From Streptosporangiaceae bacterium (lineage in GTDB: Bacteria; Actinomycetota; Actinomycetes; Streptosporangiales; Streptosporangiaceae), in assembly GCA_035483035.1 (NCBI GenBank), contig DATHQE010000268.1, positions 1 to 51,033 of the forward strand: DNA of 51,033 nucleotides, written 5' to 3'. The notes under the pieces are model-generated. The model saw only the letters and a program-made list of their open reading frames with translations. It made no database searches and was not told where the DNA came from. Shown here piece after piece: positions 4,011-48,341 of this stretch. The stretch's first letter is position 1, and each line of letters opens with the position of its first letter. The translations under genes and the position numbers were made by a program.

Positions 4011-4035
4011 TCGGAGTCTCCTCAAAGGGTTGTCT

Positions 4036-4049
4036 ACCAAACGCTTGCT
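4036..4049. promoter_or_regulatory. KstR2-type operator box 2: ACCAAACGCTTGCT (one mismatch)
   Basis: About 26 nt upstream of the binding-protein start (4010, minus strand). On the minus strand it is followed by a TAGACA hexamer. Confidence 0.6.
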
Positions 4050-4257
4050 CAAGGCATGCTAGAGACCAAGCTCGGAGTCCGTCCAGGTATCTCGTCAGTC
4101 AGGTTGGATCAGCCGAAAAATTGTTTCCTCACCGTTATCAACTGACTGTGATCAGGCGTGCCGCCAGGCGGTGGGTGGAGTACGCCCAGTTCGGCGCGCG
4201 GCCGTGCGGCCGACCTCGCCTGCGATGTTGCAGCAAGTCGTTGGGCCAGAAGACGTG

Positions 4258-4271
4258 ACCAAGCGCTTGAT
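4258..4271. promoter_or_regulatory. KstR2-type operator box 3: ACCAAGCGCTTGAT
   Basis: Perfect CAAGCGCTTG core, 128 nt upstream of the permease start at 4399. A weaker relative, AGCAAGTCGTTGGG, sits at 4232-4245. Confidence 0.75.
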
Positions 4272-4398
4272 TATGTCCTAAAGTCGGTGCGGGCTCGAAG
4301 TTCACGTGGGAACCCTGGCGGGACGTTCGTCCTGGTTGACAAGCTATGACCGACTTATCGCTACAGTCGGAATTCCAGCGGAAAGGACGTAACGCCCG

Positions 4399-5256: not shown

Positions 5257-5260
5257 GGCC

Positions 5261-7084: not shown

Positions 7085-7889
7085 GCCCCAGAACGGTCCG
7101 GCCTCGCCGGACGTCACGCAGCCACCGGCTGCGACGGGGCCGGCCGCATCGCCCGGTGCGCCGCTGCTGAGCGTCAATGAGCTGGCAACCGGCTACGGTG
7201 ACCTGCGCGTCGTCTGGGACGTCTCGTTCGAGGTGCGTCCCGGACAGGTCACGGCCCTGCTAGGGCGCAACGGCGCTGGCAAGACCACCACACTGCGGGC
7301 GATCGCGGGACTCAATCGGGTCCAGGGCGGATCAGTGCTGCTGGAGGGCCGCGACATCGCCGGCCTGCCGCCGCACAAGCGCATCCGGGCTGGCCTGGGC
7401 TTCGTGCAGGAGAACAAGAGAGTGTTCAAGCGCCGCACTGTGGAAGCGAACCTGATGCTGGGCGGGTACACCCGGAGCATCGGGCGCAAGGGACTGATGA
7501 AGGCGGTCGACGAAATCTACGAGCTCTTCCCGGTCCTGCGCGGGCGTGCGACCACCACGGCAGGGCAGTTGTCCGGCGGGCAGCAGCAAATGCTGGCGAT
7601 CGGCCAGGCGTTGATGGGCAAGCCAAAGCTGCTGATGCTCGACGAGCCTTCCTCGGGCCTGGCGCCCTCCATCGTGAGCGAGGTGATGGGGAGCGTGGCG
7701 GCCCTCAAGTCAGCCGGGCTGGGGATCCTGCTCGTGGAGCAGGCCGTCGAGGCAGCCGTCCGCGTCGCCGACCAGATCGCTGTCCTCGACGTGGGGCGGA
7801 TAGTCATGTCCGGCGCAGCGAGCGAGATATCCGACCTGGAGATCATCCAGGACGCTTACTTCGGCCGCGTTCGAGAGCGCCCGCAGTGA
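7077..7889 (+). CDS. ABC transporter ATPase, LivF type, with Pro/Ala-rich N-terminal extension
   Basis: Walker A GRNGAGKTT, signature LSGGQQQM, Walker B LLMLDEPSSG. The start overlaps the upstream stop (ATGACTGA). Confidence 0.9.
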   Translation: MTEPQNGPASPDVTQPPAATGPAASPGAPLLSVNELATGYGDLRVVWDVSFEVRPGQVTALLGRNGAGKTTTLRAIAGLNRVQGGSVLLEGRDIAGLPPHKRIRAGLGFVQENKRVFKRRTVEANLMLGGYTRSIGRKGLMKAVDEIYELFPVLRGRATTTAGQLSGGQQQMLAIGQALMGKPKLLMLDEPSSGLAPSIVSEVMGSVAALKSAGLGILLVEQAVEAAVRVADQIAVLDVGRIVMSGAASEISDLEIIQDAYFGRVRERPQ

Positions 7890-24684: not shown

Positions 24685-25404
24685 ATGGTGCGGAAGCTGG
24701 ATGACATGAGCCTGGCAGAGAGCGCACAGGCCGCTGTCGGGCCGCGTGAAGTGCGAGCAGCCAGTGGCCGCTTGGCGGGAACGCGCGCGCTCGCGACGCG
24801 AGCCCGGCTGCTGGACTGCACCAGGCAGCTACTGGCCGGGCGTTCCTATCGCGACCTGACCGCGATCGAAATCGCCCGCGAGTGCGGTACGAGCCCGGCG
24901 ACCTTCTACCAGTACTTCCCGGACGTCGAGTCCGCCGTGCTGACCGTCGCGGCAGAGCTGGCTGGTCACCGCGGCGAGCTGAGCGAGATCGTCCGCAGTG
25001 CGAACTGGCGCGACCGGACCGCGGCCGAGACGGCTGCTCGAGACCTGGCCAGGGCTTTCATGGACTTCTGGGGCCGGCACCGCTCGGTGCTGCGAGTGAT
25101 AGACCTGAGCTCCGCCGAGGGGGACATGCGCTTCCGCACGCTGCGCACGGAGCTACTCAACGATGTCACCAACGCGCTGGCAGAGGCGATCGCGGATGTC
25201 CGCGACCCGCGCCGGCCCGGTCATCTTGGGCCTGGCACCGATCCGATGGCGGTTGCCGCCGTGCTCGTCTCGATGCTGGCGCACGTGGCGTCCCATCGCG
25301 AAGGGCTCGAAACCTGGGGCATAGCCTCCGCCGACACCGAGGCGGTGATGGCGGACATCGTGTGCGAGGCGGTGGCCGGGCGTCCGTCGCGCCGGGGCAG
25401 CTAG
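24685..25404 (+). CDS. TetR-family transcriptional regulator
   Basis: 239 aa. HTH region TRARLLDCTRQLLAGRSYRDLTAIEIARECGTSPATFYQYFPDVESAV. The stop TAG (25402-25404) shares CTAG with the convergent gene. Confidence 0.9.
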   Translation: MVRKLDDMSLAESAQAAVGPREVRAASGRLAGTRALATRARLLDCTRQLLAGRSYRDLTAIEIARECGTSPATFYQYFPDVESAVLTVAAELAGHRGELSEIVRSANWRDRTAAETAARDLARAFMDFWGRHRSVLRVIDLSSAEGDMRFRTLRTELLNDVTNALAEAIADVRDPRRPGHLGPGTDPMAVAAVLVSMLAHVASHREGLETWGIASADTEAVMADIVCEAVAGRPSRRGS

Positions 25405-27554
25405 CCTGACGGATGCCAGAGCGGATCGGCGGCCCGCACGACTGGCTCGCCGCGCAACAGGACTTGCGCATCGACCTGAGTGGCGCAGCCAGGGCAGTAC
25501 AGCCGGTGCAGCTGGAAACGCTCGCCACCCGGGTAGCCGGCCGACCAGGGCGCTACGGACCGCGTCGGCACCGCGTCGTCGATCAGTCGGGCGTACGCGT
25601 CACCGCCCGGCGGCGCCAGCAGCGTGCCGCAGGTCCGGCACTCCAGGCTCCCGTCAGCGCGAATCGCCAGGGCCGCGCTGAACCGCGAGCCGGTTCCGCC
25701 GTCGCGGGGCACCGGGACCCGGCCGCCTAGGCGCCGTCGGCGCCGCTGCTCGCGCAGTCGCGTGGTAGCCGCGACGTCGAGCACCCAGCCGACCCCGGCA
25801 TCCCCGGTGAGGACGGTGCCGTAGTCCAGCGCCGCCCGCCGCGGGCTCACCCGGCCGAGCTGTACGTCCCGCGTGACAGCGTGCGGGTCGCGCTCAAGCG
25901 GATCACCATGACCACCGCCGCCCTGGCTCACCGCCACATGCGCCTGACCGGTGGCGACCGCGGAGCGCCGGGTCGGCAGTTCCAGCTCGGCCCCCTCAGT
26001 AAGGCCATCGGCCAGCTGCAGCGCGGCGGCGCGGTCAGCGATGGCGTAGATGCTCTGGCGGCCCGGCTCGCCCCCGGCCAGTCCAGCGGCGGCAGGGTGC
26101 TGCAGCCCCTGTGCGAACGACAGCACGGCGACTGGTCCGTCCGCCGCATGGGGGGCGATGACGTTCACGCAGCCGAGGCCGCCGCGATATCGGCCCGGGC
26201 CGCCAGAGTCGGCCAGCTCGGAGCGCCGCAGGTACAGCAGCGGCAGATAGCTCTCATTGACCTCGACGTCGGCGCATGAGGCGCCTGGCGAGGTGGTCGT
26301 GCCCGAACTGCTGAGCCCGTCGTGCTCGCCGCTGGCCCCGCCGCCGCCGGCCAGCTCGTCTAGCGTCATGGCGGCGAACGCCTCGCCGTCCGTGCCTAGC
26401 CCGGCGAATACCCCGCCGCCGCCGCCCGACGAACAGCAGCTGGCCAGTGCGGTGCGGGCCAGCACCGGGTCGGATTCGAGCATCCTGGACACGCACGCGT
26501 TCACCGCGACCCGGATCGCCTGGCAGGACGAGGCCGTGCTCATCGCGACACCGCCGGGCCACCGGGCGTGGGCGATGGTGCCCTCCCGGCTGGTGATCGT
26601 GCAGACGGCCATGATCGCGCCGGGCACCCACGGCAGGTCGCCGCACAGGTAGATCATGACGGCGGCGACAGCGAAATTGACCAGAGCCGGGTAGGCGGCG
26701 TTGATCGCGCCGGGTGCCTGGTCCGAGCTCGCTGAGAAGTCGAGGTCCAGGCTGTCGCCCACCTTGGTGACGGTGAGCCGGACCGCGTAGACGTCGCTGT
26801 CATCGGGCTGCGGCGTTCCCCGCTCCAGGTAGCTGACATGACGCCAGCGGCCATCGGGAAGCGCGGCCAGTCGTGCCCGCAGCCGCTGTTCGGCGGCGAC
26901 GATCAGGCTGTCCATCACCTGCGTGACCGTTTCCGTGCCGTACTTCTCGCACAGCGCCTGCACAGCCGCGACGGTGCCGCGATTGGCGGCCAGCTGGCCG
27001 CGCAGGTCGAGCTCGTTCAGCTCAGGCGTCCGCGAGCGGCGCAGGAAGTCGCGCTGGACATCTCGCTGGACCCGGCCGCCGGCGACGATCTTGATCGGCG
27101 GCAGGGGAGTGGGCTCGTCGAAGATCGACCCGGCCTCGAAGGTCATGCCGCCCGCCGACGGGCCACCCACGTCGAACTGGTGGACGCTGGACCCGCACCA
27201 GGCGACGAGCTGGCCGCCGTGGAAGACCGGTGCCACGACGACGACGTCTGGCTGATGCAGGGTCCCCACGTACGGGTCATTCGTCAGGAACTGGTCGCCA
27301 GGTCCGATGCCCGGGCTGTCGCGATACTCCCGCATGATGTCGGTGGTGACCAGGTTCATCGAAGCGAGCTGGCAAAGGACGTAGTAGCCGCAGGCGACCA
27401 CAGTGCCGTCGGCGGTCGTGATCGCGGTATTCAGGTCGTTAGCCTCGACCGCTACGGGCGAGCCTGACACCTGCCGCAAGGTGATCGCTGCTTCCTCGTT
27501 GATGCTGTCGAGGCGGTGCCGGATGATCTCAAGTCTGATCGGGTCGACAGGCAT
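25401..27554 (-). CDS. Hydantoinase B/oxoprolinase-family subunit fused to a C-terminal four-Cys domain resembling acetone carboxylase gamma
   Basis: ORF 25401-27593, with ATG 27554 (MPVDPIRLEIIRHRL) preferred and GGAG upstream. The body is HyuB-like. The last ~80 aa contain CRTC-x44-CPGC with FQLHRLYCPGCATQVD, resembling the Zn-binding gamma subunit of acetone carboxylases (from memory of that family). Confidence 0.85.
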   Translation of the reverse strand: MPVDPIRLEIIRHRLDSINEEAAITLRQVSGSPVAVEANDLNTAITTADGTVVACGYYVLCQLASMNLVTTDIMREYRDSPGIGPGDQFLTNDPYVGTLHQPDVVVVAPVFHGGQLVAWCGSSVHQFDVGGPSAGGMTFEAGSIFDEPTPLPPIKIVAGGRVQRDVQRDFLRRSRTPELNELDLRGQLAANRGTVAAVQALCEKYGTETVTQVMDSLIVAAEQRLRARLAALPDGRWRHVSYLERGTPQPDDSDVYAVRLTVTKVGDSLDLDFSASSDQAPGAINAAYPALVNFAVAAVMIYLCGDLPWVPGAIMAVCTITSREGTIAHARWPGGVAMSTASSCQAIRVAVNACVSRMLESDPVLARTALASCCSSGGGGGVFAGLGTDGEAFAAMTLDELAGGGGASGEHDGLSSSGTTTSPGASCADVEVNESYLPLLYLRRSELADSGGPGRYRGGLGCVNVIAPHAADGPVAVLSFAQGLQHPAAAGLAGGEPGRQSIYAIADRAAALQLADGLTEGAELELPTRRSAVATGQAHVAVSQGGGGHGDPLERDPHAVTRDVQLGRVSPRRAALDYGTVLTGDAGVGWVLDVAATTRLREQRRRRRLGGRVPVPRDGGTGSRFSAALAIRADGSLECRTCGTLLAPPGGDAYARLIDDAVPTRSVAPWSAGYPGGERFQLHRLYCPGCATQVDAQVLLRGEPVVRAADPLWHPSG

Positions 27555-27564
27555 ATGCGCTCCG

Positions 27565-29616
27565 CTAACTCCCGAGCTCGAGATGCAGCTCACCGGTCTG
27601 CCCGACGACGGCGGCCTGCCCTGGGCGGACGATCGCCGTCGTCGTCTCGGCTTCGATGAAGGCCGGCCCGGCCACGCGCTGGCCCGCGCCTAGATCCGCC
27701 CAGCGATAGACGCTGCAGCGCACGTCCCAGCCTTCGAACACCGCGGTCTTGTGCCGGGCGGGCCGGCCGGGGGCCGGCCCGCGGGAGGCGGTGGCCGGAA
27801 CTGCCGTTGGCAGCCAGGCGTCAACGGCGACCGACAGGACCTCGACGGGCGTCTCCTCGGGTGCCGTGCCAGGGCCGATCACCCGCTCGTATCGATCGCG
27901 GAAGCGCTCGATGAGGTCCCCGGCCGTCGCGGCCGCGGGAACCTCGACCTCGATGCGGTGCAGCTGGCGGTGGAAGCGCAGCCCGGCGCTGCGGGTGACG
28001 CGGATCTCCGCGTGCGGACCCGCGCCGTGCAGCTGACGGCGAACCTCGGGCTCAAGCTCGGCCAGAGCGGCCCGGACCTGGCTGAGCGCCTCGGCTAGCG
28101 GCTGCGGGCGCAGGTCCCGCTCGGCGCGCACGCGCAGGTCACCGCACAGTGCGCCGTACGCGGACAGGCCTGCTGCGAGCGCAGGGATAATCACGCCGCG
28201 GACGCCTAGCCCGGCGGCGAACCAGGCCGCGTACTGAGGCCCGGCGCCGCCGTAGGCCAGCAGCGCGAAGTCGGCCGGGTCATGGCCGCGCTGGATCGTT
28301 GCGCGGCGAACCAGGTCGCGCATCTGCTCGCAGGCGACCTGCACGATCCCGTCCGCCGCAGCTGTCACGCTGAGCCCGAGCGGCTCGGCGATCTCCCTGC
28401 GTATCGCGTCGGTAGCGGCGTCGCCGTCCAGCTGGAGGCTGCCGCCCAGCCGGTCAATATAGCCCAGCACGACGGCTGCGTCGGTCAGCGTCGGCCGGAT
28501 ACCGCCGAGTCCGTAGCAGGCCGGTCCCGGGCTGGCCGCGGCCGTCTGCGGCCCTACGCGCAGCGACCCGAGCGCGTCGTCGATCCAGGCTATGCTGCCG
28601 CCCCCGGTGCCAATCGACTCGATGTCGACCGCCCTTACCGCGAGCGGCAGTCGGCTGATCGTCGGCCGGCGGGCGTACTGAGGCTCGCCGTCGATGATCA
28701 GCCCGACGTCGAAGCTGGTGCCGCCGACGTCGGCGGCGATGACGCTGGCGAAGCCGGCCTGGGCGCACAGCCGGCGTGCGGCGGCGACACCGCCAGCCGG
28801 CCCGGACCGCAGCGTGTGGACCGGTTGCTGCCGGGCAGCCTGGGCCGGCTGGACTCCGCCGCCCATCCGCACCACGAGGAGCGTTCCGCCGAAGCCAAGC
28901 TCACGCAGCTGCTTTTCCAGCCGCTCCAGGTATGAGCTCACCAGTGGCGCAATGTAGGCATCGATGACCGCGGTGGTCATCCGCTCGTACTCACCGATCC
29001 GGGACGCAAGGCGGTTTGATGTCGTGACCGGCACACCGGGCGCGAGTTCTGCGACTAGCTCGCGGACTCGGTCCTCATGCACAGGATTGGCCGGCGACCA
29101 CAACAGGCAGACCGCCAGGGACCGCACCCCGCGGCGCAGCAGCCCGGCGATCGCTGCCCTGACCTGATCATCGTCCAGATCGGCCAGCACGGCGCCGGAA
29201 GCGTCGACGCGACCGGCGACGCCGACGATGTCACGCGGATCAACGAGAACGTCCGGCTTGGCCCATCGGGCTGGCGCCTGCCGGTCGGCAATCGGCAGAT
29301 CGTGGATCTTGTTCGACTTCGCGATGGACAGCGTCGATTCAAAGCCCTCGGTCGTGATCAGGCCGACCCGAGCGCCCGCGCCCGTCAGCACAGCGTTCAA
29401 GCCAACCGTCGTGCCATGCGCCAGGACGTCTGTGGTCGCGAGCAGCCCGGCGAGATCGGTGCCGACCATCGGTGCGGCCCGGCGCAACGCAGCCAGCACA
29501 CCGTCTTCGAGGTGGCCGGGAGTCGACAGCGCCTTGGCAACGGCCAGCTGTCCGCTGCCGGTGACCACGACGACGTCCGTGAACGTGCCGCCCGTGTCGA
29601 CGCCGATCAGTTGCAT
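27565..29616 (-). CDS. Hydantoinase A/oxoprolinase-family ATP-binding subunit
   Basis: 683 aa. N-terminal MQLIGVDTGGTFTDVVV ASKHA-fold phosphate motif and a second ADVGGTSFDVG motif. Confidence 0.9.
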   Translation of the reverse strand: MQLIGVDTGGTFTDVVVVTGSGQLAVAKALSTPGHLEDGVLAALRRAAPMVGTDLAGLLATTDVLAHGTTVGLNAVLTGAGARVGLITTEGFESTLSIAKSNKIHDLPIADRQAPARWAKPDVLVDPRDIVGVAGRVDASGAVLADLDDDQVRAAIAGLLRRGVRSLAVCLLWSPANPVHEDRVRELVAELAPGVPVTTSNRLASRIGEYERMTTAVIDAYIAPLVSSYLERLEKQLRELGFGGTLLVVRMGGGVQPAQAARQQPVHTLRSGPAGGVAAARRLCAQAGFASVIAADVGGTSFDVGLIIDGEPQYARRPTISRLPLAVRAVDIESIGTGGGSIAWIDDALGSLRVGPQTAAASPGPACYGLGGIRPTLTDAAVVLGYIDRLGGSLQLDGDAATDAIRREIAEPLGLSVTAAADGIVQVACEQMRDLVRRATIQRGHDPADFALLAYGGAGPQYAAWFAAGLGVRGVIIPALAAGLSAYGALCGDLRVRAERDLRPQPLAEALSQVRAALAELEPEVRRQLHGAGPHAEIRVTRSAGLRFHRQLHRIEVEVPAAATAGDLIERFRDRYERVIGPGTAPEETPVEVLSVAVDAWLPTAVPATASRGPAPGRPARHKTAVFEGWDVRCSVYRWADLGAGQRVAGPAFIEAETTTAIVRPGQAAVVGQTGELHLELGS

Positions 29617-29638
29617 GCCGCTGGTTTCGTGCAGGCGA

Positions 29639-30481
29639 TCACGGCTGAGCCCCGCCGTGCACCGGAATGGTCACGCCGGAGACATACGACGCGGCGTCTG
29701 AGCAGAGGAACTCGATCACCGCGGCGGTCTCGTCTGCGTCCTGAGCGCGGCCTAGCGGGATCTGACGGGCGGTCCACTCGGCGAACGAGATGCCCTGCCG
29801 CTCGGCCAGAGCGATAAGGCCGGGATTGGGGAACCGCTGGCTCGGGGCGACGCTGAGCGGGGCGACGGCATTGACCCGAATCTGGTCCGGGCCGAGTTCC
29901 TTAGCCAGGACGGACACCAGGTGATTCACGGCGACCCGGGCGGCGCCAAGAGCCCCGACGCCTGCCTTGGGGACGAGCGCGGCCTGCGAGGACAGCACCA
30001 CGATCGTGCCCGGCCGGCCCGCAGCCCGCATAGCCCGCGCCGCGGCTCGAACCAGCAGCCAGGGAGCTGTCAGGTTGAGTTCCAGGCCGCGGGCCCAGGC
30101 ATCCTCGGTCACGTCAAGCAGCGCACCGTCGCCAGCGTGCGGGCCGGTGATGCCGTTGAGCGCGCAGCACACGTCCAGGCGGCCGAAGCGGGCGGTCGTG
30201 GCATCGACGAGCTGCTGCCACGAACGCGAGTCGGCCTCGCGCTGCGGGAGCGCCAGCACGTGGCCGCCGCCGGGCCGGGCGGCCTGCTCGATCTCGGCCA
30301 CCACGTCGTCGAAGAGCGCTGGCGTGACCGTGCCAGTGTCTGCGGGCCGTGCCGCGAGCAGGTCCGCGCACGCCACCGTGAAGCCAGCGCGGGCCAGGCG
30401 CAGCGCCGTCGCCCGGCCGATGCCCGGCGGCCTGGCGACGCCTGAGACCAGCGCGACGCGGTTGACGGGCGCAGGGTGCAC
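29639..30481 (-). CDS. Atypical SDR-fold protein (catalytic Tyr-x3-Lys apparently replaced)
   Basis: GTG start with GGAGG 5 nt upstream. The Rossmann-like motif is VALVSGVARPPGIGRAT. Where YxxxK is expected after LSSQAAL the sequence reads GALGAARVAV (Leu and Arg by manual alignment). Confidence 0.8.
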   Translation of the reverse strand: MHPAPVNRVALVSGVARPPGIGRATALRLARAGFTVACADLLAARPADTGTVTPALFDDVVAEIEQAARPGGGHVLALPQREADSRSWQQLVDATTARFGRLDVCCALNGITGPHAGDGALLDVTEDAWARGLELNLTAPWLLVRAAARAMRAAGRPGTIVVLSSQAALVPKAGVGALGAARVAVNHLVSVLAKELGPDQIRVNAVAPLSVAPSQRFPNPGLIALAERQGISFAEWTARQIPLGRAQDADETAAVIEFLCSDAASYVSGVTIPVHGGAQP

Positions 30482-30526
30482 GGTACCTCCGGCCGCTCGC
30501 GACGAGCGCTACCTGGACGAGTAAAG

Positions 30527-30545
30527 ATCTGATTGACCGTCAGAA
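30527..30545. promoter_or_regulatory. Fourth copy of the TCTGA-N7-TCAGA operator (ATCTGAttgaccgTCAGAA)
   Basis: Lies in the 132-nt divergent region between the SDR start (30481) and the ligase start (30614), 11 nt upstream of a TAGGCT -10-like hexamer (30557-30562). Confidence 0.6.
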
Positions 30546-30583
30546 AGTAGCGCCGTTAGGCTCTGCGATCAAGGCCACGGGTG

Positions 30584-30597
30584 ACCAAGCGCTTGGC
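30584..30597. promoter_or_regulatory. KstR2-type operator box 8: ACCAAGCGCTTGGC
   Basis: Perfect CAAGCGCTTG core, 3 nt upstream of the GGAGGA Shine-Dalgarno (30601-30606) of the ligase gene. Confidence 0.7.
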
Positions 30598-30613
30598 CGG
30601 GGAGGATTTGCCG

Positions 30614-32743
30614 ATGACCGCAGTTGCCCATCCCGGCTCAGGAGCGGCCCTCGCCGATGCCCCTGACCTGCACAGATTCTTCCATCCGCGCAGCGTCGCT
30701 GTCATTGGCGCGACCGACAAGCAGGGCAGTCCCGGGACCATCAACTGGAGACTGATCCACCGCTGGGCACAGCGGGCCGGCGCGGAGATCTACCCGGTCA
30801 ACCCGAACCGGCCCACCGTGGACGGCGTCCGCGCCTACCCGTCGCTCGCCGATGTCCCGGAAGTGCCGGACGTGGCAGTCGTGATGGTCGGCGACGTCGT
30901 GGCAGCCCTGCGCGAAGTGGTCGCCAAGGGGGCTGGGTTCGTGGTGATCTTCGCCAGTGACTTCGCCGAGACAGGCGCAGAAGGCGCGGCCCGGCAGCGG
31001 GAGCTCGTGTCGATCATCGAGGGCACCGGCGTACGGCTGCTGGGCCCGAACACCAATCTGAACGCATTCGAGAACTTCCGCGCCGACCTGCCCGGGCCAG
31101 CGATCTCGATGATCACTCAAAGCGGACACCAGGGCCGACCGGTCTTCCAGGGTCAGGAGATCGGCATCCGGCTCAATCACTGGGCCCCGACCGGGAACGA
31201 AGCTGACCTCAGCTCGGCCGATTTCATCGACTACTTCTCCACCCTGCCAGAGACCGGGGCGATCGCTGCGTACCTGGAGGGCGTCACCGATGGCCCGGCG
31301 TTCCAGCGCGCGATCGCGGCGGCGGCAAGGCGCGCTGTCCCGGTCGTGGTGGTGAAAGTAGGCCGGACCGAAGTGGGCAGGTCATGGGCGCTGTCGCACA
31401 CCGGTCATCTGGCCGGGTCGGACGAGATCGTGTCTGCCGTGCTGCGTCAGTACGGCGTGATCCGGGTCGAGGGCCTCGACGAACTGCTGGACACTGCGAC
31501 CATGCTGGCCAGGTCCCGCCCGCCTGCCGTCGCCGGCGTGTGCGTCTACTCGATCTCGGGCGGAACCAGCGCCCACATGGCCGACATGCTCACGGCCGCC
31601 GGGGTCGCCCTGCCCGAGTTGGAAGAATCGACCAGGACGCAGCTTCGCGAGTGGATTCCCGGCTACCTGCGGATCAGCAACCCCATCGACAACGGCGGGC
31701 ACCCGGTCGGGGACTGGCGCGGTCGCAAGATCCTGGCTGCGCTGCTCGCTGACCCGAACGTCGGCGTCCTGGTCGTCCCCATCACGGGCGCCTTCAGCCC
31801 GATGAGCGACAAGTTCGTCGCCGACCTCGCCGCGGCCGCGGAGACCACCGACAAGCCCATCTGCGTGGTGTGGGGATCGCCGGTCGGCACCGAGGCCGCC
31901 TATTGCGAGGGACTGCTGTCATCGTCACGCATCGTCACCTTCCGCACTTTCCGCAACTGTGTCACAGCAGTGCGCGCTTACCTGGACTTCCACGCCTTCC
32001 AGCAGCGCGTCCACGAGCTCCCTGCCGAGCCGGCGCAGCAGCCCGGCCGAACAGCCGAAGCGACCCGGGCACTGACCGAGCCTGAGGCCAAGCGACTGCT
32101 GGCGCGCTACGGGATCCCGGTCACCCTGGACGTCCTCGCCAGCACAGCAGACGATGCCGTCGCTGCGGCGGCCGAGATCGGCCCGCCGGTGGTGCTGAAG
32201 GCGGTGTCGGCCGGGATTGCGCACAAGTCCGACCTCGGCCTGGTGCGAATCGGGGTGACCGCGCCGGACGACGTGCGCAGCACCTTTAGCGACTTCGAGG
32301 CCAGGGTGGCAGCGGTGCCCGGCGCCGAGTTCGACGGGGTTCTGGTCTGCGAGCAGGCCAGCGGCGGGGTCGAGATGGTGGTCGGCATCGCGAGGGACGA
32401 GGTGTTCGGCCCCGTGGTGATGGCCGGGATCGGCGGGGTCGCGGTCGAGGTGTACCGCGACGTGACCTTCCGGCTGCCGCCGTTCAGCCGGGCCGAGGCG
32501 CGCCGGATGATCGATGACCTGCGCGGGGCAGTGCTCCTGCTCGGCCATCGGGGTTCCCCGCCCGCGGACCTCGACGCTCTCGTCGACGTGATCATGAAAG
32601 TTCAGCAGATCGCCCTGGACGGCTCGGTCGGCGAGCTAGACATCAATCCGCTGCTCGTATCTGAGCACGGTGCTGTCGCGCTGGATGCGCTCGCTACCGT
32701 CATCGGTGCGGAAGCTATGAATGACGAGGCCACACATGACTGA
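30614..32743 (+). CDS. ADP-forming (NDP-forming) acyl-CoA synthetase, fused CoA-binding/succinyl-CoA-synthetase-like and ATP-grasp domains
   Basis: The ORF track starts at GTG 30581. ATG 30614 is preferred because of GGAGGA and because it leaves box 8 untranslated. FFHPRSVAVIGATDKQGSPG is a CoA-binding motif, GPNTNLNAF is present, and the C-terminal part (AKRLLARYGIPV...VLKAVSAGIAHKSDLGLV) is ATP-grasp. Confidence 0.85.
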   Translation: MTAVAHPGSGAALADAPDLHRFFHPRSVAVIGATDKQGSPGTINWRLIHRWAQRAGAEIYPVNPNRPTVDGVRAYPSLADVPEVPDVAVVMVGDVVAALREVVAKGAGFVVIFASDFAETGAEGAARQRELVSIIEGTGVRLLGPNTNLNAFENFRADLPGPAISMITQSGHQGRPVFQGQEIGIRLNHWAPTGNEADLSSADFIDYFSTLPETGAIAAYLEGVTDGPAFQRAIAAAARRAVPVVVVKVGRTEVGRSWALSHTGHLAGSDEIVSAVLRQYGVIRVEGLDELLDTATMLARSRPPAVAGVCVYSISGGTSAHMADMLTAAGVALPELEESTRTQLREWIPGYLRISNPIDNGGHPVGDWRGRKILAALLADPNVGVLVVPITGAFSPMSDKFVADLAAAAETTDKPICVVWGSPVGTEAAYCEGLLSSSRIVTFRTFRNCVTAVRAYLDFHAFQQRVHELPAEPAQQPGRTAEATRALTEPEAKRLLARYGIPVTLDVLASTADDAVAAAAEIGPPVVLKAVSAGIAHKSDLGLVRIGVTAPDDVRSTFSDFEARVAAVPGAEFDGVLVCEQASGGVEMVVGIARDEVFGPVVMAGIGGVAVEVYRDVTFRLPPFSRAEARRMIDDLRGAVLLLGHRGSPPADLDALVDVIMKVQQIALDGSVGELDINPLLVSEHGAVALDALATVIGAEAMNDEATHD

Positions 32744-34022
32744 GCCAGCACCGCTGCTGTCGGGTGTCCGGGTGCTTGAGGCATCGCTGCTGGAGCCAGC
32801 GGCCCTCGGCATGATCCTCGCCGATCTCGGCGCTGACGTGATCAAGGTGGAGCCACCTGGCGGGGACTACGTGCGCACCATGGCCTGGCCGATCATCGAG
32901 GGTGTCTCGCTGCTGCACTGGCACGTGAATCGCGGCAAGCGCAGCGTCGAGCTAGACCTGCGCACGGAGGCCGGTGTCTCGGTGTTCCTGGACCTGGCCG
33001 CGCAGAGCGACATCGTGATCGAGGCCATGCGACCGGGCGCGCTCGCCCGGCGCGGCATCACCGTCGAGCGGCTGCGCGAGCGGCGGCCGGATCTGGTGAT
33101 CTGCAACGTCTCCGGCTGGGGCAGCACCGGTCCGTACCGCAATATCCCGTCACACGGCATCGGGTTCGACGTGTGGGCTGGACTCGCGGAGCCGGCTACC
33201 GACGACGAGGGGTTCGCCTACATGCCGGACCACACCACCGTCGGCGTGCGGGTGACGCCGGTGTGGGGCGCGCTCGCCGTCTGTGCTGCGCTGCTGCGGG
33301 CCCGCGCGACCGGAGTTGGCGCCCAGATCGACCTGGCGCAAAGCGATGTGGCAGCGATCACGAACTGGTTCCGGATCGAGGGAGCACGCGCTTACGAGCG
33401 TCCGGAGGAAGAAGTGACTGGCAACCCCGCCGACGGGGGACAGCGGCGTGATCCGGGCATCACCGGCATGCTGGGGTCGGTGCGCTACCAGTACTACCGG
33501 ACCAGCGACGGCTACATTCTGCTGATGGCGTCCGAGCGGGAGTTCTGGCAGAACTTCTGCGCTGCCGTGAACCGCATGGACCTGTTCGAGGGGCGAACCG
33601 GCAGCAGGTACGCCGACCACGCCCGCGGCGACCGGGTGCTACAGCGAGAATTGCAGCAGCTGTTCGTGACCCGGACCACGGCGGAGTGGGTGGCACTGGG
33701 CAATTCGGCCAACTGCCCGATTGCCAAAGTGAACGACGCCACCTCAATCACTGCCGACCCGGCATTCGCGGAGCGGCTGCCGTGGCTGCCTGCCGCCGAG
33801 TTCGGCACCGACCTGATGCCGTCCCCGGTCGGCCTCATCGGCGAGCAACGGGTCGCCTCGCGGCGGGCGCCGCGGCCGGGCGAGCACACCGCCGAGGTGC
33901 TGCGTGAGGTGCTGGGCGTGACCGGCGAGCGGCTGGCAGAGCTGCGCGCGGCCGGCGCGGTGCCGGATACGCACCAGCCGGATGCGCACCAGCCGGAGAA
34001 GTCGCCCGGAGCGACGCAGTGA
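32736..34022 (+). CDS. Family III CoA-transferase (CaiB/BaiF family) with repeat-containing C-terminal tail
   Basis: ATG 32736 (ATGACTGA overlap) or ATG 32721. LLSGVRVLEASLLEPAALGMILADLGADVIKVEPPGG and EAMRPGALARRGI are present. The tail is PDTHQPDAHQPEKSP. Confidence 0.9.
   Translation: MTEPAPLLSGVRVLEASLLEPAALGMILADLGADVIKVEPPGGDYVRTMAWPIIEGVSLLHWHVNRGKRSVELDLRTEAGVSVFLDLAAQSDIVIEAMRPGALARRGITVERLRERRPDLVICNVSGWGSTGPYRNIPSHGIGFDVWAGLAEPATDDEGFAYMPDHTTVGVRVTPVWGALAVCAALLRARATGVGAQIDLAQSDVAAITNWFRIEGARAYERPEEEVTGNPADGGQRRDPGITGMLGSVRYQYYRTSDGYILLMASEREFWQNFCAAVNRMDLFEGRTGSRYADHARGDRVLQRELQQLFVTRTTAEWVALGNSANCPIAKVNDATSITADPAFAERLPWLPAAEFGTDLMPSPVGLIGEQRVASRRAPRPGEHTAEVLREVLGVTGERLAELRAAGAVPDTHQPDAHQPEKSPGATQ
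33969..33998 (+). repeat. 15-nt tandem repeat x2 (acGCACCAGCCGGAt / gcGCACCAGCCGGAg)
   Basis: Read directly. Encodes THQPD-AHQPE at the 3' end of the CoA-transferase gene. A partial third unit (CCGGAT) precedes it. Confidence 0.85.
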
Positions 34023-34070
34023 ACGAGAGCGATGCAGTGAACGAGAGCGACAGGGTGAACGAGAAGGTGT
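34017..34070 (+). repeat. 18-nt tandem repeat x3 spanning a stop/start junction (CAGTGAACGAGAGCGAnn)
   Basis: The units are cagtgaacgagagcgatg, cagtgaacgagagcgaca and gggtgaacgagaaggtgt. Each carries an in-frame GTG, and they encode VNESDA-VNESDR-VNEKVY. Confidence 0.85.
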
Positions 34071-34789
34071 ACATCCACGAGCTCATCGACATCATCGGCC
34101 AGAACCGGGCCAGGTACATGTATCACATGACCGCCAACTGGAGCCCGATCGGTCAAGAGGAGCGCGGCCAGCAGTGCTACGGCGTCTGGGGGGTAGTGGG
34201 CAGCACCGCCCGGTGGCCGCAAGTCGTGAATATCTGGGAGGAGGACGGCTTCGACGGGCTGGCGCGGTCGTTCCAGCACGAGCTCGGGCACGACACTTTG
34301 CAGGATCCCAAGCTGGCGAAATGGTGGGCGCAGGCCGCGGGCTATCGGTCTGGCGGCTTCGATCGCATCCTGGTGCCGGCGCCGTGGATGCGCACCGGCG
34401 CTGAGGCCATTGCCGACGGGGTGGCCGGCGAAGTGCACGCGCATGTGCAGGTGCAGCTGCGCCCCGGTGCCGCGCCCGAGTACCTGGCCGCTGCGCACGA
34501 CGGCTCGAAGGCAATGACGTCACGGTTCGGCTGGCAGCTGACTGGCGCATGGCGCACAGCGATGGCCGGCGACGCGGAGTGCATCCTGCTGTGGACCATC
34601 CCGACCTGGCACGCCTGGGCCGAAGCCGAGAAGGCGCTGACCGCCGAGCCCGGGCTTGGCCGGCTGGGCGCCGAGCTGGACGTACTTAGCGTCCACCGGT
34701 TCCTGATGGTCGACGCGCCGCTGTCCCCATTCCGGATTCGCCGACAGCCAGCCCGTTCCGATCGCACGGACGCCTACAGCGAGGTGTGA
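34019..34789 (+). CDS. Hypothetical protein, possibly tandem NIPSNAP-like (dimeric alpha/beta barrel) domains
   Basis: GTGA overlap with the upstream stop. Two ~100-aa halves each have a pattern like VYIHELIDI...YGVWGVVGSTARWPQVVNIWEEDGF, reminiscent of NIPSNAP proteins. The functional call is weak, and the true start could be any of three repeated GTGs. Confidence 0.5.
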   Translation: MNESDAVNESDRVNEKVYIHELIDIIGQNRARYMYHMTANWSPIGQEERGQQCYGVWGVVGSTARWPQVVNIWEEDGFDGLARSFQHELGHDTLQDPKLAKWWAQAAGYRSGGFDRILVPAPWMRTGAEAIADGVAGEVHAHVQVQLRPGAAPEYLAAAHDGSKAMTSRFGWQLTGAWRTAMAGDAECILLWTIPTWHAWAEAEKALTAEPGLGRLGAELDVLSVHRFLMVDAPLSPFRIRRQPARSDRTDAYSEV

Positions 34790-34948: not shown

Positions 34949-35842
34949 GTGGCTGACAAACGGATGTCTGAGGATGATGTCGTCGGGCGGCTACGGTCGG
35001 GCATGACGATCGGCATCGGTGGCTGGGGATCGCGCCGCAAGCCCATGTCGCTGGTCCGTGCCATGCTGCGCAGCGACCTGCGCGACCTCACCGTTGTCTC
35101 TTATGGTGGCCCGGACGTCGGAATGCTGTGCGCCGCGGGCAAGGTGCGCCGGCTCATCTACGGCTTCGTGTCGCTCGACTCGATCCCGCTCGAGCCGCAT
35201 TTCCAGGCCGCACGGCAGTCGGCGGCGATCGAGGTCACCGAGTATGACGAGGGAATGCTGCAGTGGGCCCTCTACGCGGCTGCGTGCCGGCTGCCGTTCC
35301 TTCCCACGAGGACGGGTCTTGGCTCGGACGTGATGCGGGTCAACCCGCAGCTGCGCACGGTGCGGTCACCCTACGACGACGGCGCCGAGCTGGTGGCCGT
35401 GCCGGCGCTGCCGCTTGATGCCGCGCTGGTGCACCTGAACCGGGCCGACGCGGCAGGCAATGCCCAGTTCCTGGGTGACGACCTCTACTTCGACGACCTG
35501 TTCTGCTCGGCCGCGGACCAGGCATTCATCTCCTGCGAACGGATCGTGCCGACCGCCGAGCTGGCCGCGGGCGGCCTGCACACGCTGCGGGTGCACCGGT
35601 GGATGGCCACGGGAGTGGTGGAGGCGCCGAACGGCGCGCACTTCACCTCCTGCGCGCCCGACTATCAGCGGGACGAGGCGTTTCAGCTGGAGTACGTCAC
35701 CGCGGCCAAGGACGCTCAGGCTTGGTCGCAGTTCGTCGACACTTACCTCACTGGTGGCGAAGCGAGCTACCAGGCGGCACTGGCAGCCCGCATGACAGCA
35801 GCCCGCCCAACAGCAGCCCGCGAGACCGAGTTGACGGCGTGA
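34949..35842 (+). CDS. ipdA: CoA-transferase-fold subunit A, IpdA-like (glutaconate CoA-transferase family)
   Basis: GTG start. LRSGMTIGIGGWGSRRKPMSLVRAMLRSDLRDLTVVSYGGPDVGMLCAAGKVRRLIYGFVSLDS closely matches my recollection of M. tuberculosis Rv3551. The symbol is tentative. Confidence 0.8.
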   Translation: MADKRMSEDDVVGRLRSGMTIGIGGWGSRRKPMSLVRAMLRSDLRDLTVVSYGGPDVGMLCAAGKVRRLIYGFVSLDSIPLEPHFQAARQSAAIEVTEYDEGMLQWALYAAACRLPFLPTRTGLGSDVMRVNPQLRTVRSPYDDGAELVAVPALPLDAALVHLNRADAAGNAQFLGDDLYFDDLFCSAADQAFISCERIVPTAELAAGGLHTLRVHRWMATGVVEAPNGAHFTSCAPDYQRDEAFQLEYVTAAKDAQAWSQFVDTYLTGGEASYQAALAARMTAARPTAARETELTA

Positions 35843-36633
35843 CCGGCGTCGCTGAGGTCGCAGACGATCTGACCGGCGCGACCGCATCGCGGGCCGAGGT
35901 GTGCGTCGTGGCCTGCGCCGAAGCGTGGCGCGGTGATGGCGAGATCGCCGCGAGCCCGATGGGCACGATCCCGACCGCTGCCGCGAGGCTGGCCAGGGCC
36001 ACATTCGAGCCGGATCTCCTGCTGACCGACGGCGAGGCCCGCTACGTGACGGGGACGTGGGCGCTCGGCCAGCCGGCGTCCGGCGCGGTAGAGGGCTGGA
36101 TCCCGTTCCGGTCGGTCTTTGACCTGGCGTGGGGCGGGCGGCGGCACGTCATGATGAGCCCGGCGCAGATCGACCGCTACGGCAACGCCAACATCTCGGC
36201 CATCGGCGATTTCGACCGGCCCGCCCGCCAGCTACTCGGCGTCCGCGGCGCACCCGGCAACACCGTCAACCATGCCACCAGCTACTGGGTGCCGCGGCAT
36301 CAGCCGCGCGTATTCGTACCGCGGGTCGACATGATCTCCGGGGTCGGCTACGACCGCGCCGCCACAGCGGGCCCGGACGCGAGCCGGTTCCTCGAGCTGC
36401 GCCGCGTCGTGACGAACCTGGCTGTGCTCGACTTCGGCGGTCCTGGCCACAGCATGCGGCTGGTCTCGGTGCACCCGTGGGCGATGGCGGACGAGGTCGT
36501 CGCCGCGACCGGCTTCGAGCTCGCGATCGACGGCGACGTCCCTGACACGCGCCTGCCGTCGGCGGACGAACTGCGGCTGCTTCGCGAGGTCATCGACCCG
36601 TCCGGCCTGTGCGACCGTGAGGTGCCCGCGTGA
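35839..36633 (+). CDS. ipdB: CoA-transferase-fold subunit B, IpdB-like
   Basis: ORF 35599-36633. GTG 35839 is in a GTGA overlap with the ipdA-like stop. SRAEVCVVACAEAWRGDGEIAASPMG and IDRYGNANISAIGD are typical of beta subunits. The symbol is tentative. Confidence 0.8.
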   Translation: MTGVAEVADDLTGATASRAEVCVVACAEAWRGDGEIAASPMGTIPTAAARLARATFEPDLLLTDGEARYVTGTWALGQPASGAVEGWIPFRSVFDLAWGGRRHVMMSPAQIDRYGNANISAIGDFDRPARQLLGVRGAPGNTVNHATSYWVPRHQPRVFVPRVDMISGVGYDRAATAGPDASRFLELRRVVTNLAVLDFGGPGHSMRLVSVHPWAMADEVVAATGFELAIDGDVPDTRLPSADELRLLREVIDPSGLCDREVPA

Positions 36634-45693: not shown

Positions 45694-46062
45694 ATGTCCT
45701 CCTGCCCGGTCGGCAGCTTCTTGGCTCTATGAGTCGGACAGCCGACCAATTTTTGCTCAGTCTGATACGGAACATATCTGAGGCCAGCTGGCATCGGCAA
45801 GACGATCTGTCGTCGTGGCCGCCAGTGCCGACAGCGAGGACGGCCCTGGGATAGTCGAGCAGTTCAAGGCCTGTCACAAGGTGTAAGTCACCTCAAGACG
45901 TCCTCAAGTCAACGGTCCACGTCGTCGCCAATGAGCAAGGATGACAGCTTTGATCTCGGTGCGAAGTTTTCCTAGACATGGGAGGTCGGGCGCGATATCT
46001 TAATCAAGAATTTGGACAGTCGGCCAACTAATCTCTTCCGCTGTGCACGAGAGAAGGCACCC

Positions 46063-47337
46063 ATGGTGATTGACAGGTCGAGCAGCACGCGGGCGAAGAT
46101 CCGCGCGAGAGGCCGGTCGGGACGAGGGCTGCGCCGGTCAGGCGCTGGCGCGGGTGTCGCGGCCCTTGCCCTTGCGCTGGCTGCGTGTGGTAGTTCATCA
46201 GCTCCGGCGGCCAGCGGCAGTAGCGGCGCCAACTTCCTCAGCGCGCCGCTGAAGATCGTGTTCCTGTGGAGCATCAAGGGCGAAGATTCGGCGTCCGCCG
46301 ATTACTACAACCAGGGCGGCGTGATGGCTGTCGACGAGATCAACAAGGCTGGCGGCGTAGGCGGCCAGAAGATCTCGACCGTGCGCTTCCAATCTAATCC
46401 GCTCGATCCCACCAACGTTGTGACGAACTTCCTCAATGCCGTTGGTCAGAAGCCCGCTTTCATCATCGGCCTGGATGCCCCAGACGCCGAGGCGGCGTCA
46501 AGTCAGGTTACTAGGGCCGGGATCCCCACCTTCTCGATTACCCAGGACCAGAACCTGAACTACGGGGCCAAGGCTGGCAGTCCCTGGCTCTTCTCCACAG
46601 TCACTAACGATGGTCTTCAGGCGGCGGTCGCATCGACGTTCGTCGCCGATAACCTGAAGGCCACGAGCGTAGGGCTGCTCCATACCAATGAGTCCTTCGG
46701 CGACACCGGCTCGGCGATCCAGCAGGCGTATTTCAAGGCTCACGGCATAAATATCGTCGCCAACATTCCTTATGCCGTGGATGCGAGCGACCTCACGGGC
46801 CCAGTGCTCGCGGTCAAGAGCGCGCAAGCCGTGATCGACTGGGGCTACCCCAATCCGGTCGCGGTCCAGCTGAACCAATTCGTGCAAAATGGCATCAGCA
46901 TTCCGACCATCACCGGTGGTGCCGCGCCTTACATTGTCGATGGCAAGCTGGCGGCCGGCTCCGCGATCAAGAAGCTGTACTCGATCGACCCGTGCAACCC
47001 CACCCCCAGCACGCCACGGGTGGCGAACTGGATCAAGTCATTTGAGGCGAAGTACGGCGCACCCCCGACGGCCAGCTCGGCCGAGTCCTATGACGCCGTC
47101 TACCTGGCCGTCGCGGCAATCAAGGCTGCAAGGTCGATCGATCCGGACAAGGTGAGAGCCGCGATCGAGAGCTTGCATTACACCAACGGCATCTGCACGA
47201 ACGACTATCACGCTGACGCGGCGCACGACCTGATGCATTCAGTCACAGTCATCTCCTGGTCGACAGGCGTAGGGAAGACCGAGGCCGTCATCGACACCAA
47301 GGACCAGTCAGCGGGAACGCCGAACCCACTGCCCTAA
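46063..47337 (+). CDS. ABC transporter substrate-binding lipoprotein, LivJ/LivK family (second system)
   Basis: ORF 46012-47337. ATG 46063 is preceded by GAGAAGG. A basic N-region (RGRSGRGLRRSGAG) is followed by AALALALAACGSS (lipobox). The body resembles type I binding proteins. Confidence 0.9.
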   Translation: MVIDRSSSTRAKIRARGRSGRGLRRSGAGAGVAALALALAACGSSSAPAASGSSGANFLSAPLKIVFLWSIKGEDSASADYYNQGGVMAVDEINKAGGVGGQKISTVRFQSNPLDPTNVVTNFLNAVGQKPAFIIGLDAPDAEAASSQVTRAGIPTFSITQDQNLNYGAKAGSPWLFSTVTNDGLQAAVASTFVADNLKATSVGLLHTNESFGDTGSAIQQAYFKAHGINIVANIPYAVDASDLTGPVLAVKSAQAVIDWGYPNPVAVQLNQFVQNGISIPTITGGAAPYIVDGKLAAGSAIKKLYSIDPCNPTPSTPRVANWIKSFEAKYGAPPTASSAESYDAVYLAVAAIKAARSIDPDKVRAAIESLHYTNGICTNDYHADAAHDLMHSVTVISWSTGVGKTEAVIDTKDQSAGTPNPLP

Positions 47338-47379
47338 GCTCGGCGGTCGGCCTGCGGGCAGATCAGGTGACCAACGTCG

Positions 47380-47419
47380 GATTCCTGTCCGTATTCCCCA
47401 GGGCATGCGGACAGGAATC
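47380..47419 (+). other. Intercistronic stem-loop (12-bp perfect stem, 16-nt loop)
   Basis: GATTCCTGTCCG (47380-47391) pairs with CGGACAGGAATC (47408-47419), between the binding-protein stop (47337) and the permease start (47463). There is no U tract. Confidence 0.6.
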
Positions 47420-47462
47420 GGGCATAGAACGCGGCTCGGTTGTCGCCGACAGAAGGGTGAGA

Positions 47463-48341
47463 ATGGCTAGGTTCGTTGCGCTCTTCGCGAGTGGCATCTC
47501 GTTCGGCGCGATCGTCGCGATCGTGGCGGCGGGATTCCTCGTGCTCTACAAAGCCACGGGCGTTGTGAACTTCGCCCACGGCGACCTGATGACCGCGGGC
47601 GCGTTCGTCGCGGTCTGGAGTATCGATAGTCTGCACCTGCCCATCCTCGCCGCATATGCGCTGGCCCTAGTCGTGCTGTGGGGTGTTGGAATGCTGATGG
47701 AACGCCTGGTATACGCACCACTTCGACATCGCTCGATGATGGTCATCGTCATCGGCACGCTGGGCGCGGCCACTGTAATCCGCTACACCCTGGCGGTGTG
47801 GCAGGGCAGCACTCCACTTCAGCTCCAGACCCCGGTCGGGACCGACAGCGTCTGGCACCTCCTCGGCGCCGCCATTTCTTACCAGCGGACGATGATCGTC
47901 ATCGTCGCCGCTGTTGTGCTCGGCTTCCTTTACTTCTTGTTCTATGGGACGTCGTTCGGCCGCCAGGTCAGGGCCCTAGCTACGGATCGGGAGACGGCAC
48001 AGCTACAGGGCATTCGGGTGCGCAGGATGGCTTTCATCGCCTTCGGGCTGTCGGCGGCGCTCGCGGCCCTGGCCGGCATTCTGATCGCCCCGCTGAGCTC
48101 GGTCGACCTAACGTTGGGTTTCAATGTGATGCTCACGGCCTTCGCCGCGGCCATTCTTGGTGGCTTCGGCAACCTTACTGGCGTCATCGTCGGCTCGCTC
48201 ATCATCGGCCTCGTGCAGCAACTGGTCGGCGGTTATGTCTTCCTCGCCTATAGCTCAGCGCTGCCTTTCGTCGTGATGCTGCTCATCATGGTTCTGCGGC
48301 CGACGGGCCTGTTTAGTGAGGAAGCTCGTGCCAGGCTCTGA
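47463..48341 (+). CDS. ABC transporter permease, LivH type
   Basis: ORF 47367-48341, with ATG 47463 (MARFVALFASGISFGAIVAIVAAGFLVLYKATGVVNFAHGD) preferred. Confidence 0.9.
   Translation: MARFVALFASGISFGAIVAIVAAGFLVLYKATGVVNFAHGDLMTAGAFVAVWSIDSLHLPILAAYALALVVLWGVGMLMERLVYAPLRHRSMMVIVIGTLGAATVIRYTLAVWQGSTPLQLQTPVGTDSVWHLLGAAISYQRTMIVIVAAVVLGFLYFLFYGTSFGRQVRALATDRETAQLQGIRVRRMAFIAFGLSAALAALAGILIAPLSSVDLTLGFNVMLTAFAAAILGGFGNLTGVIVGSLIIGLVQQLVGGYVFLAYSSALPFVVMLLIMVLRPTGLFSEEARARL

Follow-up and report, generated by a model that had tools for sequence, protein, structure and literature searches.

A hydantoinase-type operon from a Streptosporangiaceae bacterium with a carboxylase gamma-type zinc domain fused to its B subunit

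Introduction

Biotin-independent, ATP-dependent ketone carboxylases are rare enzymes that form C-C bonds and fix CO2, and to our knowledge the characterised examples are limited to the acetone and acetophenone enzymes. Here, we describe a relative of these enzymes from a Streptosporangiaceae bacterium (Actinomycetota), which is encoded on contig DATHQE010000268.1 of assembly GCA_035483035.1. The analysis covered positions 1 to 51,033 of the contig, hereafter called the window. Positions 25401-30481 hold three co-directional minus-strand genes for a protein with the fold of the short-chain dehydrogenases/reductases (SDR), a HyuA-like subunit and a HyuB-like subunit. The last part of the HyuB-like subunit resembles the small zinc-binding gamma subunit of the ketone carboxylases. 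In the published classification of the superfamily, gamma is known only from carboxylases and was reported to be absent from all members of the hydantoinase (Hyd) branch; according to the published rule, the small zinc subunit marks carboxylases and does not occur in hydrolases (PMC5214803). Previous descriptions of gamma, from acetone and acetophenone carboxylases, are of a separate protein only.

The acetone carboxylase AcxABC of Xanthobacter autotrophicus (5m45/5svb) has a Hydantoinase_A-type ATP subunit, a Hydantoinase_B-type metal subunit and a gamma subunit with a Cys4-Zn site, and its genes are arranged in the order A, B, gamma. The same components are found in the same order in the window, where gamma is fused to the C-terminus of B, and in relatives in which gamma is a separate downstream gene. 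In AcxABC, gamma mainly contacts the B-type subunit, the C-terminal arm of which aligns with the linker of the fused protein (query residues 541-616 versus Acx residues 620-695). However, Acx gamma is a separate protein of 168 amino acids (aa) with an extra N-terminal part, and the B-type subunit of 776 aa (about 720-776 aa in the branch) is longer than the core of about 607 aa encoded here. Acx is also the most distant of the references: it scores lowest with the A subunit and aligns with B only in three fragments. Neighbour-joining (NJ) trees set it apart from the clade of the window proteins.

The acetophenone carboxylase ApcABCDE of Aromatoleum aromaticum (5l9w) possesses a short gamma subunit, which is the best match of the tail of the window protein, and an Asp-His-Asp-His site in its beta subunit, and it too occurs together with SDR and CoA-activation genes. 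Where the window has a single A gene, Apc includes a second subunit that binds ATP (alpha') as well as an epsilon subunit, and its gamma is not fused but has a gene of its own between apcA and apcC. The nearest characterised relatives of the core subunits, by hidden Markov model (HMM) score and by NJ, are the caprolactamase CapAB of Pseudomonas jessenii (6yra) and N-methylhydantoinase (7hk5/9h03). These enzymes share similar subunit lengths, an identical metal tetrad and the ATP motifs with the window proteins, but they lack gamma, are only 27-36% identical, act on lactam or hydantoin substrates and are encoded in a nitrogen-linked context. IaaCE of Aromatoleum, a proposed 2-oxoindoleacetyl-CoA gamma-lactamase of the Hyd branch, is likened here by its published description: it is an alpha/beta pair encoded amid genes for a CoA ligase and a CoA-transferase, for which no gamma has been reported (PMC5214803, PMC8453981).

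A gamma-type zinc domain at the C-terminus of the B subunit

A first-pass annotation, made from the nucleotide sequence alone, had proposed that the B subunit ends in a zinc domain of the acetone carboxylase gamma type and that it is therefore a B-gamma fusion. The motif on which this proposal was based is present exactly as described, with CRTC at residues 639-642 followed after 44 residues by CPGC at residues 687-690, within FQLHRLYCPGCATQVD. Among 71 full-length homologs with 49-89% identity, C642, C687 and C690 are invariant, as are G676 and F680, and C639 is found in 90% or more of them; because the cysteines are conserved to this extent, the motif is not a product of chance.

The assignment to the gamma family was obtained at the level of the family, by profile, fold and synteny, whereas the single sequence stays below threshold. 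The last 109 aa of the window protein reached 15.2 bits (E 0.026) with the Pfam model Acetone_carb_G (PF08882), the threshold of which is 21 bits, in an alignment of positions 72-100 of 113. The match to the NCBIfam model ApcB was sub-threshold as well (E 0.037), and the best match of the tail in the PDB by phmmer was 5l9w_C, the small zinc subunit of acetophenone carboxylase (E 0.06). By contrast, 42 of 52 orthologous tails matched PF08882 at E<=0.01, the best of them at 4.3e-11. The profile of the tails found 5l9w_C (9.7e-8), 5m45_C (3.5e-4) and 5svb_C (1.3e-3) in the PDB, and gamma chains were also recovered by the full-length profile. In these alignments, C639, C642, C687 and C690 correspond to Cys22, Cys25, Cys75 and Cys78 of Apc-gamma, which have been identified as Zn ligands (PMC5214803), and the second pair also aligns with Cys124 and Cys127 of Acx-gamma, which are published Zn ligands as well.

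The predicted structure points in the same direction. An AlphaFold2 (AF2) model of the tail had a predicted local distance difference test score (pLDDT) of 93.5 and a predicted template modelling score (pTM) of 0.84. Foldseek aligned it to 5l9w_C with a template modelling (TM) score of 0.65 and to 5m45_C and 5svb_C with 0.62-0.63, in all cases with a probability of 1.0. No chain other than gamma was found by Foldseek with E<1; the next match had an E value of 1.0 and a TM score of 0.17, and all others had TM scores below 0.3. The model of the full-length B protein (pLDDT 88.7, with 94-98 in the blocks of the tail; pTM 0.92) matched both B-type and gamma chains, and its pTM suggests that the tail is docked on the beta core. 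Thus, ortholog tails, profile, fold and relatives with split genes agree with the proposed domain, and the fusion is almost certainly real. The alternative view, of a generic zinc ribbon or of two CxxC motifs paired by chance, might draw on the sub-threshold PF08882 score of the tail and on its slightly better match to the unrelated zinc-ribbon model DUF2089 (E 0.0018), but it is contradicted by a profile, a fold and a synteny that are specific to gamma, and it can practically be dismissed.

Fused and split forms among relatives

The B protein has more than 1900 homologs. Nearly all of the 120 closest ones are full length, and about 20 of these 120 carry a precomputed combination of PF02538 and PF08882. 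For the comparison of gene arrangements, one genome per species was scanned, which yielded 80 related loci, and their open reading frames (ORFs) were searched with the HMM of the tail. The gamma domain is fused to 57 of the 86 B-type genes in these loci, while a separate gamma ORF of about 95-105 aa lies directly downstream of B in 19 cases. For the other 10 B-type genes no gamma domain was found in the 80 loci, several of these genes being located on truncated contigs. A search of the whole library with the tail profile gave 619 representatives, which comprise full-length fused proteins, fragments and stand-alone small proteins. Hyd-like alpha/beta pairs that bear gamma occur in Actinomycetota, Alpha- and Gammaproteobacteria, Chloroflexi, Binataceae and haloarchaea. 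The B-gamma fusion is thus common in sequence databases. Moreover, the gene order A-B-gamma is the one described for acxABC (PMC5214803), and the architecture is therefore explained by fusion of adjacent genes. A limited literature search for a description of the fused architecture, PF08882 or Acetone_carb_G retrieved nothing beyond Helicobacter genome papers.

Some of the related loci show further rearrangements. Two loci from Binataceae metagenome-assembled genomes (MAGs) contain three tandem paralogous fused B-gamma genes each (L048, 9698-17592; L064, 9698-17571), and another locus contains two (L039, 7234-11945), which suggests a local expansion of the family. In Nonomuraea cavernae (L032, 9602-12436), the tail matches the gamma HMM twice, at positions 1-55 and 27-107, which implies that the gamma domain contains either a partial duplication of itself or an insertion.

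Core subunits and their relationship to characterised enzymes

The Hydantoinase_A and Hydantoinase_B models match the two subunits outside the tail, as expected from the first-pass annotation (Table 1), and the general features of the superfamily are present, with ATP motifs in alpha and a metal tetrad in beta. The A subunit contains the phosphate motifs DTGGTFTD (residues 7-14) and DVGGT (residues 296-300), and AASPGP (residues about 358-363) takes the place of the adenosine motif GxxPGP of the family; the definitions of the motifs follow PMC8453981. The metal site of the B subunit consists of D40, H100, D103 and H125, all of which are invariant in the 71 homologs (ligand identities from PMC8453981 and PMC5214803). 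The tetrad was ruled out as a means of discriminating carboxylases from hydrolases, as it is universal in the superfamily, with Glu at the first position in Acx. Likewise, the vicinal cysteines Cys373-Cys374 were considered as a counterpart of the vicinal disulfide of CapB and rejected: they do not align with Cys410-411 of CapB, and the family consensus at this site is C-Q.

The identity to characterised enzymes is low and differs little between them. The B subunit shares 26-28% of its residues with ApcD, CapB, N-methylhydantoinase and Acx-alpha, and the A subunit 31-36% with the corresponding subunits. Against sequences from the PDB, the A subunit scored 367 bits with CapA, 347 with N-methylhydantoinase, 340 with Apc-alpha and 285 with Acx. 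The NCBIfam models of acetophenone carboxylase gave 190 bits (ApcD) and 359 bits (ApcC), compared with cut-offs of 1500.

Unrooted NJ trees were calculated from Kimura distances with 100 bootstraps. The four reference sequences were hand-copied from HMMER alignments and comprised the aligned regions only, with Acx-alpha represented by three fragments. The clade of the window proteins was monophyletic in 100 of 100 replicates, and it was grouped with ApcD in only two and with ApcC in none of 100 bootstraps. With four references and a distance method, all gamma-linked proteins together were monophyletic relative to the Hyd references in 48 of 100 replicates.

The conserved gene module

The gene neighbourhood was compared by tblastn of the window proteins against the 80 related loci. 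In Actinobacteria, a conserved module is found in Micromonospora, Nakamurella, Nonomuraea, Streptosporangium, Sphaerimonospora and several MAGs, in which the SDR-like gene lies directly upstream of A-B-gamma. A divergently transcribed ADP-forming acyl-CoA synthetase (44-68% identity), a nearby CoA-transferase (52-74%) and a NIPSNAP-like protein of 256 aa (48-65%) accompany it. Over the 14 loci of the close clade in which the synthetase is syntenic, its identity is 38-68%. Among the NCBIfam models, the synthetase comes closest to those of acetate-, 4-hydroxybutyrate- and 3-hydroxypropionate-CoA ligases, with scores far below the cut-off in each case. The NIPSNAP-like companion is present in 11 loci of the close clade (Actinomycetota and Aminobacter), and its Aminobacter ortholog exceeds the Pfam cut-off for NIPSNAP with 26.9 bits. 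The head-to-head arrangement with an acid-activating operon, noted in the first-pass annotation, is borne out by Pfam, and the linkage is kept in about ten actinobacterial genomes.

In alphaproteobacterial orthologs, including that of Aminobacter, genes for a DUF35 protein, an SCP-x-type thiolase and a classical SDR follow immediately after B-gamma, and these loci also retain the synthetase and the NIPSNAP-like gene. The more distant clade with split gamma often shows the arrangement A-B-gamma-SDR-aldehyde dehydrogenase. No conserved aminotransferase or amidase was found beside the module in the related loci, and neither the window nor these loci contain a second Hydantoinase_A-type gene.

Several candidates for further module genes were rejected. 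The TetR gene, the CoA_trans A/B pair, a luciferase-like monooxygenase, an Amidohydro_2 gene and a MaoC gene of the window have no syntenic counterparts in the 80 loci. In addition, visual inspection showed that several seemingly conserved neighbour families were antisense or off-frame ORFs in high-GC DNA, and these were removed.

The SDR-fold protein is atypical, as stated in the first-pass annotation, in that YxxxK is absent. It retains the Gly-rich nucleotide motif GVARPPGIG and the Ser, while Leu stands in place of the catalytic Tyr and Arg in place of the Lys. In an alignment with two classical SDRs, [L/V/I]xxxR takes the place of YxxxK in the window protein and in all 10 of 10 syntenic orthologs, 8 of which keep the Ser. 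The same substitutions are seen when the protein is aligned to the carveol dehydrogenase 3pgx; its nearest solved relatives are mycobacterial, mycofactocin-type "carveol dehydrogenases". Judged by these residues, the protein is unlikely to be an ordinary alcohol dehydrogenase, and it may be a non-redox partner or perform a different chemistry.

Possible function of the operon

The two subunits form a member of the ATP-dependent hydantoinase/ketone-carboxylase superfamily that is made of two polypeptides, alpha and a beta-gamma fusion, as predicted from their domains and motifs. For the chemistry, ketone carboxylation has roughly an even chance of being correct. In this proposal, the alpha subunit would use ATP to convert the carbonyl of a ketone to an enol phosphate and would also activate bicarbonate; the intermediates would then move to the metal site of beta, where the beta-keto acid would be formed, while gamma would be clamped onto beta as a structural element. 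Conversion of the acid to its CoA ester would fall to the divergently transcribed synthetase or transferase, and thiolytic cleavage of the ester would follow. The substrate is probably a larger molecule than acetone.

The gene context is suggestive of such a sequence from ketone to beta-keto acid, CoA ester and thiolysis. This route is favoured because the synthetase and the CoA-transferase are conserved and orthologous loci add the thiolase and DUF35. It mirrors the logic of acetophenone catabolism by the Ped, Apc and Bal enzymes, and the lack of a conserved aminotransferase or amidase near the module fits it as well. The gamma domain and the CoA genes speak for a carboxylase, which the first-pass annotation had proposed as one option beside the opening of a lactam, but the core subunits lie on the Hyd side.

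Several observations weigh against carboxylation. In the trees, the split that places the gamma-linked clade with CapB/N-methylhydantoinase, apart from Apc and Acx, was obtained in 90 of 100 replicates for B and in 89 of 100 for A. If this topology is right, gamma may be ancestral and have been lost in the classical hydrolases, and its presence alone would therefore be no mark of carboxylation. In Apc and Acx, gamma lies at a great distance from the active sites, and no catalytic role is known for it (PMC5214803). Among the NCBIfam models, CapA with 490 bits and CapB with 212 bits, both with cut-offs of 1000, score best, ahead of the Apc subunits. The lengths of alpha (683 aa) and of the beta core (about 607 aa) are Hyd-like, and the first metal ligand aligns as an invariant Asp40 and not as Glu89, which in Acx binds Mn and gates the tunnel. 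Moreover, none of the ORFs of at least 220 aa in the window encodes a thiolase. An alcohol-to-ketone step, which the earlier annotation of the SDR implied, finds no support in this clade, as the protein lacks the catalytic Tyr and Lys. An effect of bicarbonate alone would not discriminate either, since caprolactamase also requires it (PMC8453981).

The most serious rival to carboxylation is an ATP-dependent hydrolase of the lactamase/hydantoinase type that has kept an ancestral gamma, which we regard as possible, though clearly less probable. Alpha would phosphorylate a lactam, an imide or a cyclic carbonyl, and the metal site of beta would hydrolyse the ring; by analogy with the proposal for IaaCE, the substrate might even be a CoA thioester made beforehand by the neighbouring synthetase or transferase. 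Such an enzyme would account for the position of both subunits in the NJ trees, for CapA and CapB as the best curated models, for CapA and N-methylhydantoinase as the nearest relatives of alpha in the PDB, for the Hyd-like lengths and for a metal tetrad identical to that of CapB. It also has a precedent in IaaCE, a Hyd-branch enzyme amid CoA ligase and transferase genes (PMC5214803, PMC8453981). However, every characterised Hyd enzyme is without gamma (PMC5214803), the score with CapA is less than half and that with CapB about a fifth of the equivalog cut-off, and the 27-36% identity to CapAB and N-methylhydantoinase is no closer than that to Apc. The module also has no conserved nitrogen-handling neighbours, and the thiolase/DUF35 and SDR/aldehyde dehydrogenase genes of the relatives suggest a chemistry of carbon skeletons. 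The first-pass annotation had named clustering of both subunits with hydrolases as an outcome that would speak against a carboxylase, and the result is divided: both are found on the side of CapAB and N-methylhydantoinase, but in a deep clade of their own that is not nested among characterised hydrolases.

Another ATP-dependent reaction, with neither net carboxylation nor lactam hydrolysis, appears improbable. For instance, an enol phosphate might feed an isomerisation or elimination, or a cyclic ketone might be cleaved; the SDR-fold protein, which lacks the Tyr, and the NIPSNAP-like protein would then be additional subunits or partners. A deep clade that is about equidistant from the characterised enzymes and has two conserved partners without an assignable activity would fit this idea, and the authors of the Apc structure have warned that, in these branches, the sequence does not reveal the function (PMC5214803). 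However, the superfamily offers no precedent for such a reaction, and all conserved catalytic features fit the known two-site scheme.

The published criteria for the branches, subunit length and gene content among them (PMC5214803), conflict in this case: the gene content is Acx-like, and the phylogeny and size are Hyd-like. The simplest reading of the sequences would be a separate deep branch that bears gamma on a Hyd-like core. This branch is large and previously undescribed. Returning to carboxylation, its most specific version is doubtful as a whole. It holds that the operon encodes a minimal alpha/(beta-gamma) ketone carboxylase of a fourth branch of the superfamily with a Hyd-like core, acting on a larger ketone whose product is subjected to CoA-dependent thiolysis. 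The SDR-fold and NIPSNAP-like proteins would be non-redox accessory subunits, analogous in role to Apc-epsilon.

Gene layout and other features of the window

The operon of an SDR, a HyuA-like subunit of 683 aa and a HyuB-like subunit of 717 aa was found as first placed, and Pfam agrees with these assignments (Table 1). The ATG of the B gene lies 10 nt past the stop codon of A and is preceded by GGAG. Moreover, independent gene calls on two public metagenome contigs that encode an identical protein also gave 280, 683 and 717 aa.

Table 1 Features of the operon and its surroundings (positions in the window)
Feature	Position	Strand	Size and evidence
SDR-fold protein, first gene of the operon	29639-30481	-	280 aa; Pfam adh_short_C2 2.4e-41
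HyuA-like alpha subunit, ATP-binding ASKHA	27565-29616	-	683 aa; Pfam Hydant_A_N, Hydantoinase_A and Hydant_A_C
HyuB-like gene, whole	25401-27554	-	717 aa counted from ATG; stop codon 25401-25403
HyuB-like beta core, residues 1 to about 607	25734-27554	-	Pfam Hydantoinase_B at residues 4-552, 2.3e-114
Gamma-subunit-like Zn-ribbon domain, residues about 608-717, fused to the beta C-terminus	25404-25733	-	Profile, Pfam of orthologs, AF2/Foldseek
First Cys pair C639-R-T-C642, predicted Zn ligands 1 and 2	25629-25640	-	Aligned to Apc-gamma Cys22/Cys25; family conservation
Second Cys pair C687-P-G-C690, predicted Zn ligands 3 and 4	25485-25496	-	Aligned to Apc-gamma Cys75/Cys78 and Acx-gamma Cys124/Cys127
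Codons of the B metal ligands D40, H100, D103 and H125	27435-27437, 27255-27257, 27246-27248, 27180-27182	-	Alignment to ApcD, CapB, N-methylhydantoinase and Acx-alpha
Divergent intergenic/promoter region between the SDR-A-B-gamma and acid-activating operons	30482-30614	.	Sequence reading
ADP-forming (NDP-forming) acyl-CoA synthetase, fused alpha-beta type	30581-32743	+	Pfam CoA_binding_2, Succ_CoA_lig and ATP-grasp_5
Family III CoA-transferase	32721-34022	+	Pfam CoA_transf_3 6e-76
NIPSNAP-like protein	34019-34789	+	256 aa; Pfam NIPSNAP weak, E 0.03
TetR-family regulator	24685-25404	+	Pfam TetR_N and TetR_C_38

The acyl-CoA synthetase is likely to start at ATG 30615, which follows GGGAGGA, rather than at GTG 30581. 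The divergent intergenic region contains the palindrome TCTGA-N7-TCAGA (30528-30544), which could be an operator; its arms are 5 nt long, and it may have arisen by chance. The TetR gene and the B-gamma gene are convergent, and their ends overlap by 4 nt. The TetR product may be a local regulator outside the conserved module.

The window as a whole is a dense catabolic island. Two sets of Liv-type ABC transporter genes lie at 2796-7889 and at 46012-50894, and the window further encodes three family III CoA-transferases, four Amidohydro_2 genes, enoyl-CoA hydratases, an acyl-CoA dehydrogenase pair, several SDRs and several luciferase-like monooxygenases. A CoA_trans A/B pair, resembling 3-oxoacid CoA-transferases, is located at 34949-36633 on the plus strand; the ORFs as listed overlap by about 240 nt, and the second one probably starts later than 35599.

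Implications for the superfamily

The operon and its relatives bear on the rule that the small zinc subunit distinguishes carboxylases from hydrolases. One outcome would be that many two-gene ketone carboxylases, which would be easy to express, have so far escaped discovery. The other outcome would be that gamma is no marker of carboxylation and that the annotation rules need revision. Cultured hosts of the module exist in Aminobacter, Nakamurella lactea, Micromonospora and Nonomuraea. Should the reading as a fourth-branch carboxylase be true, gamma would be ancestral to the whole superfamily and would have been lost in the classical hydantoinases and lactamases.

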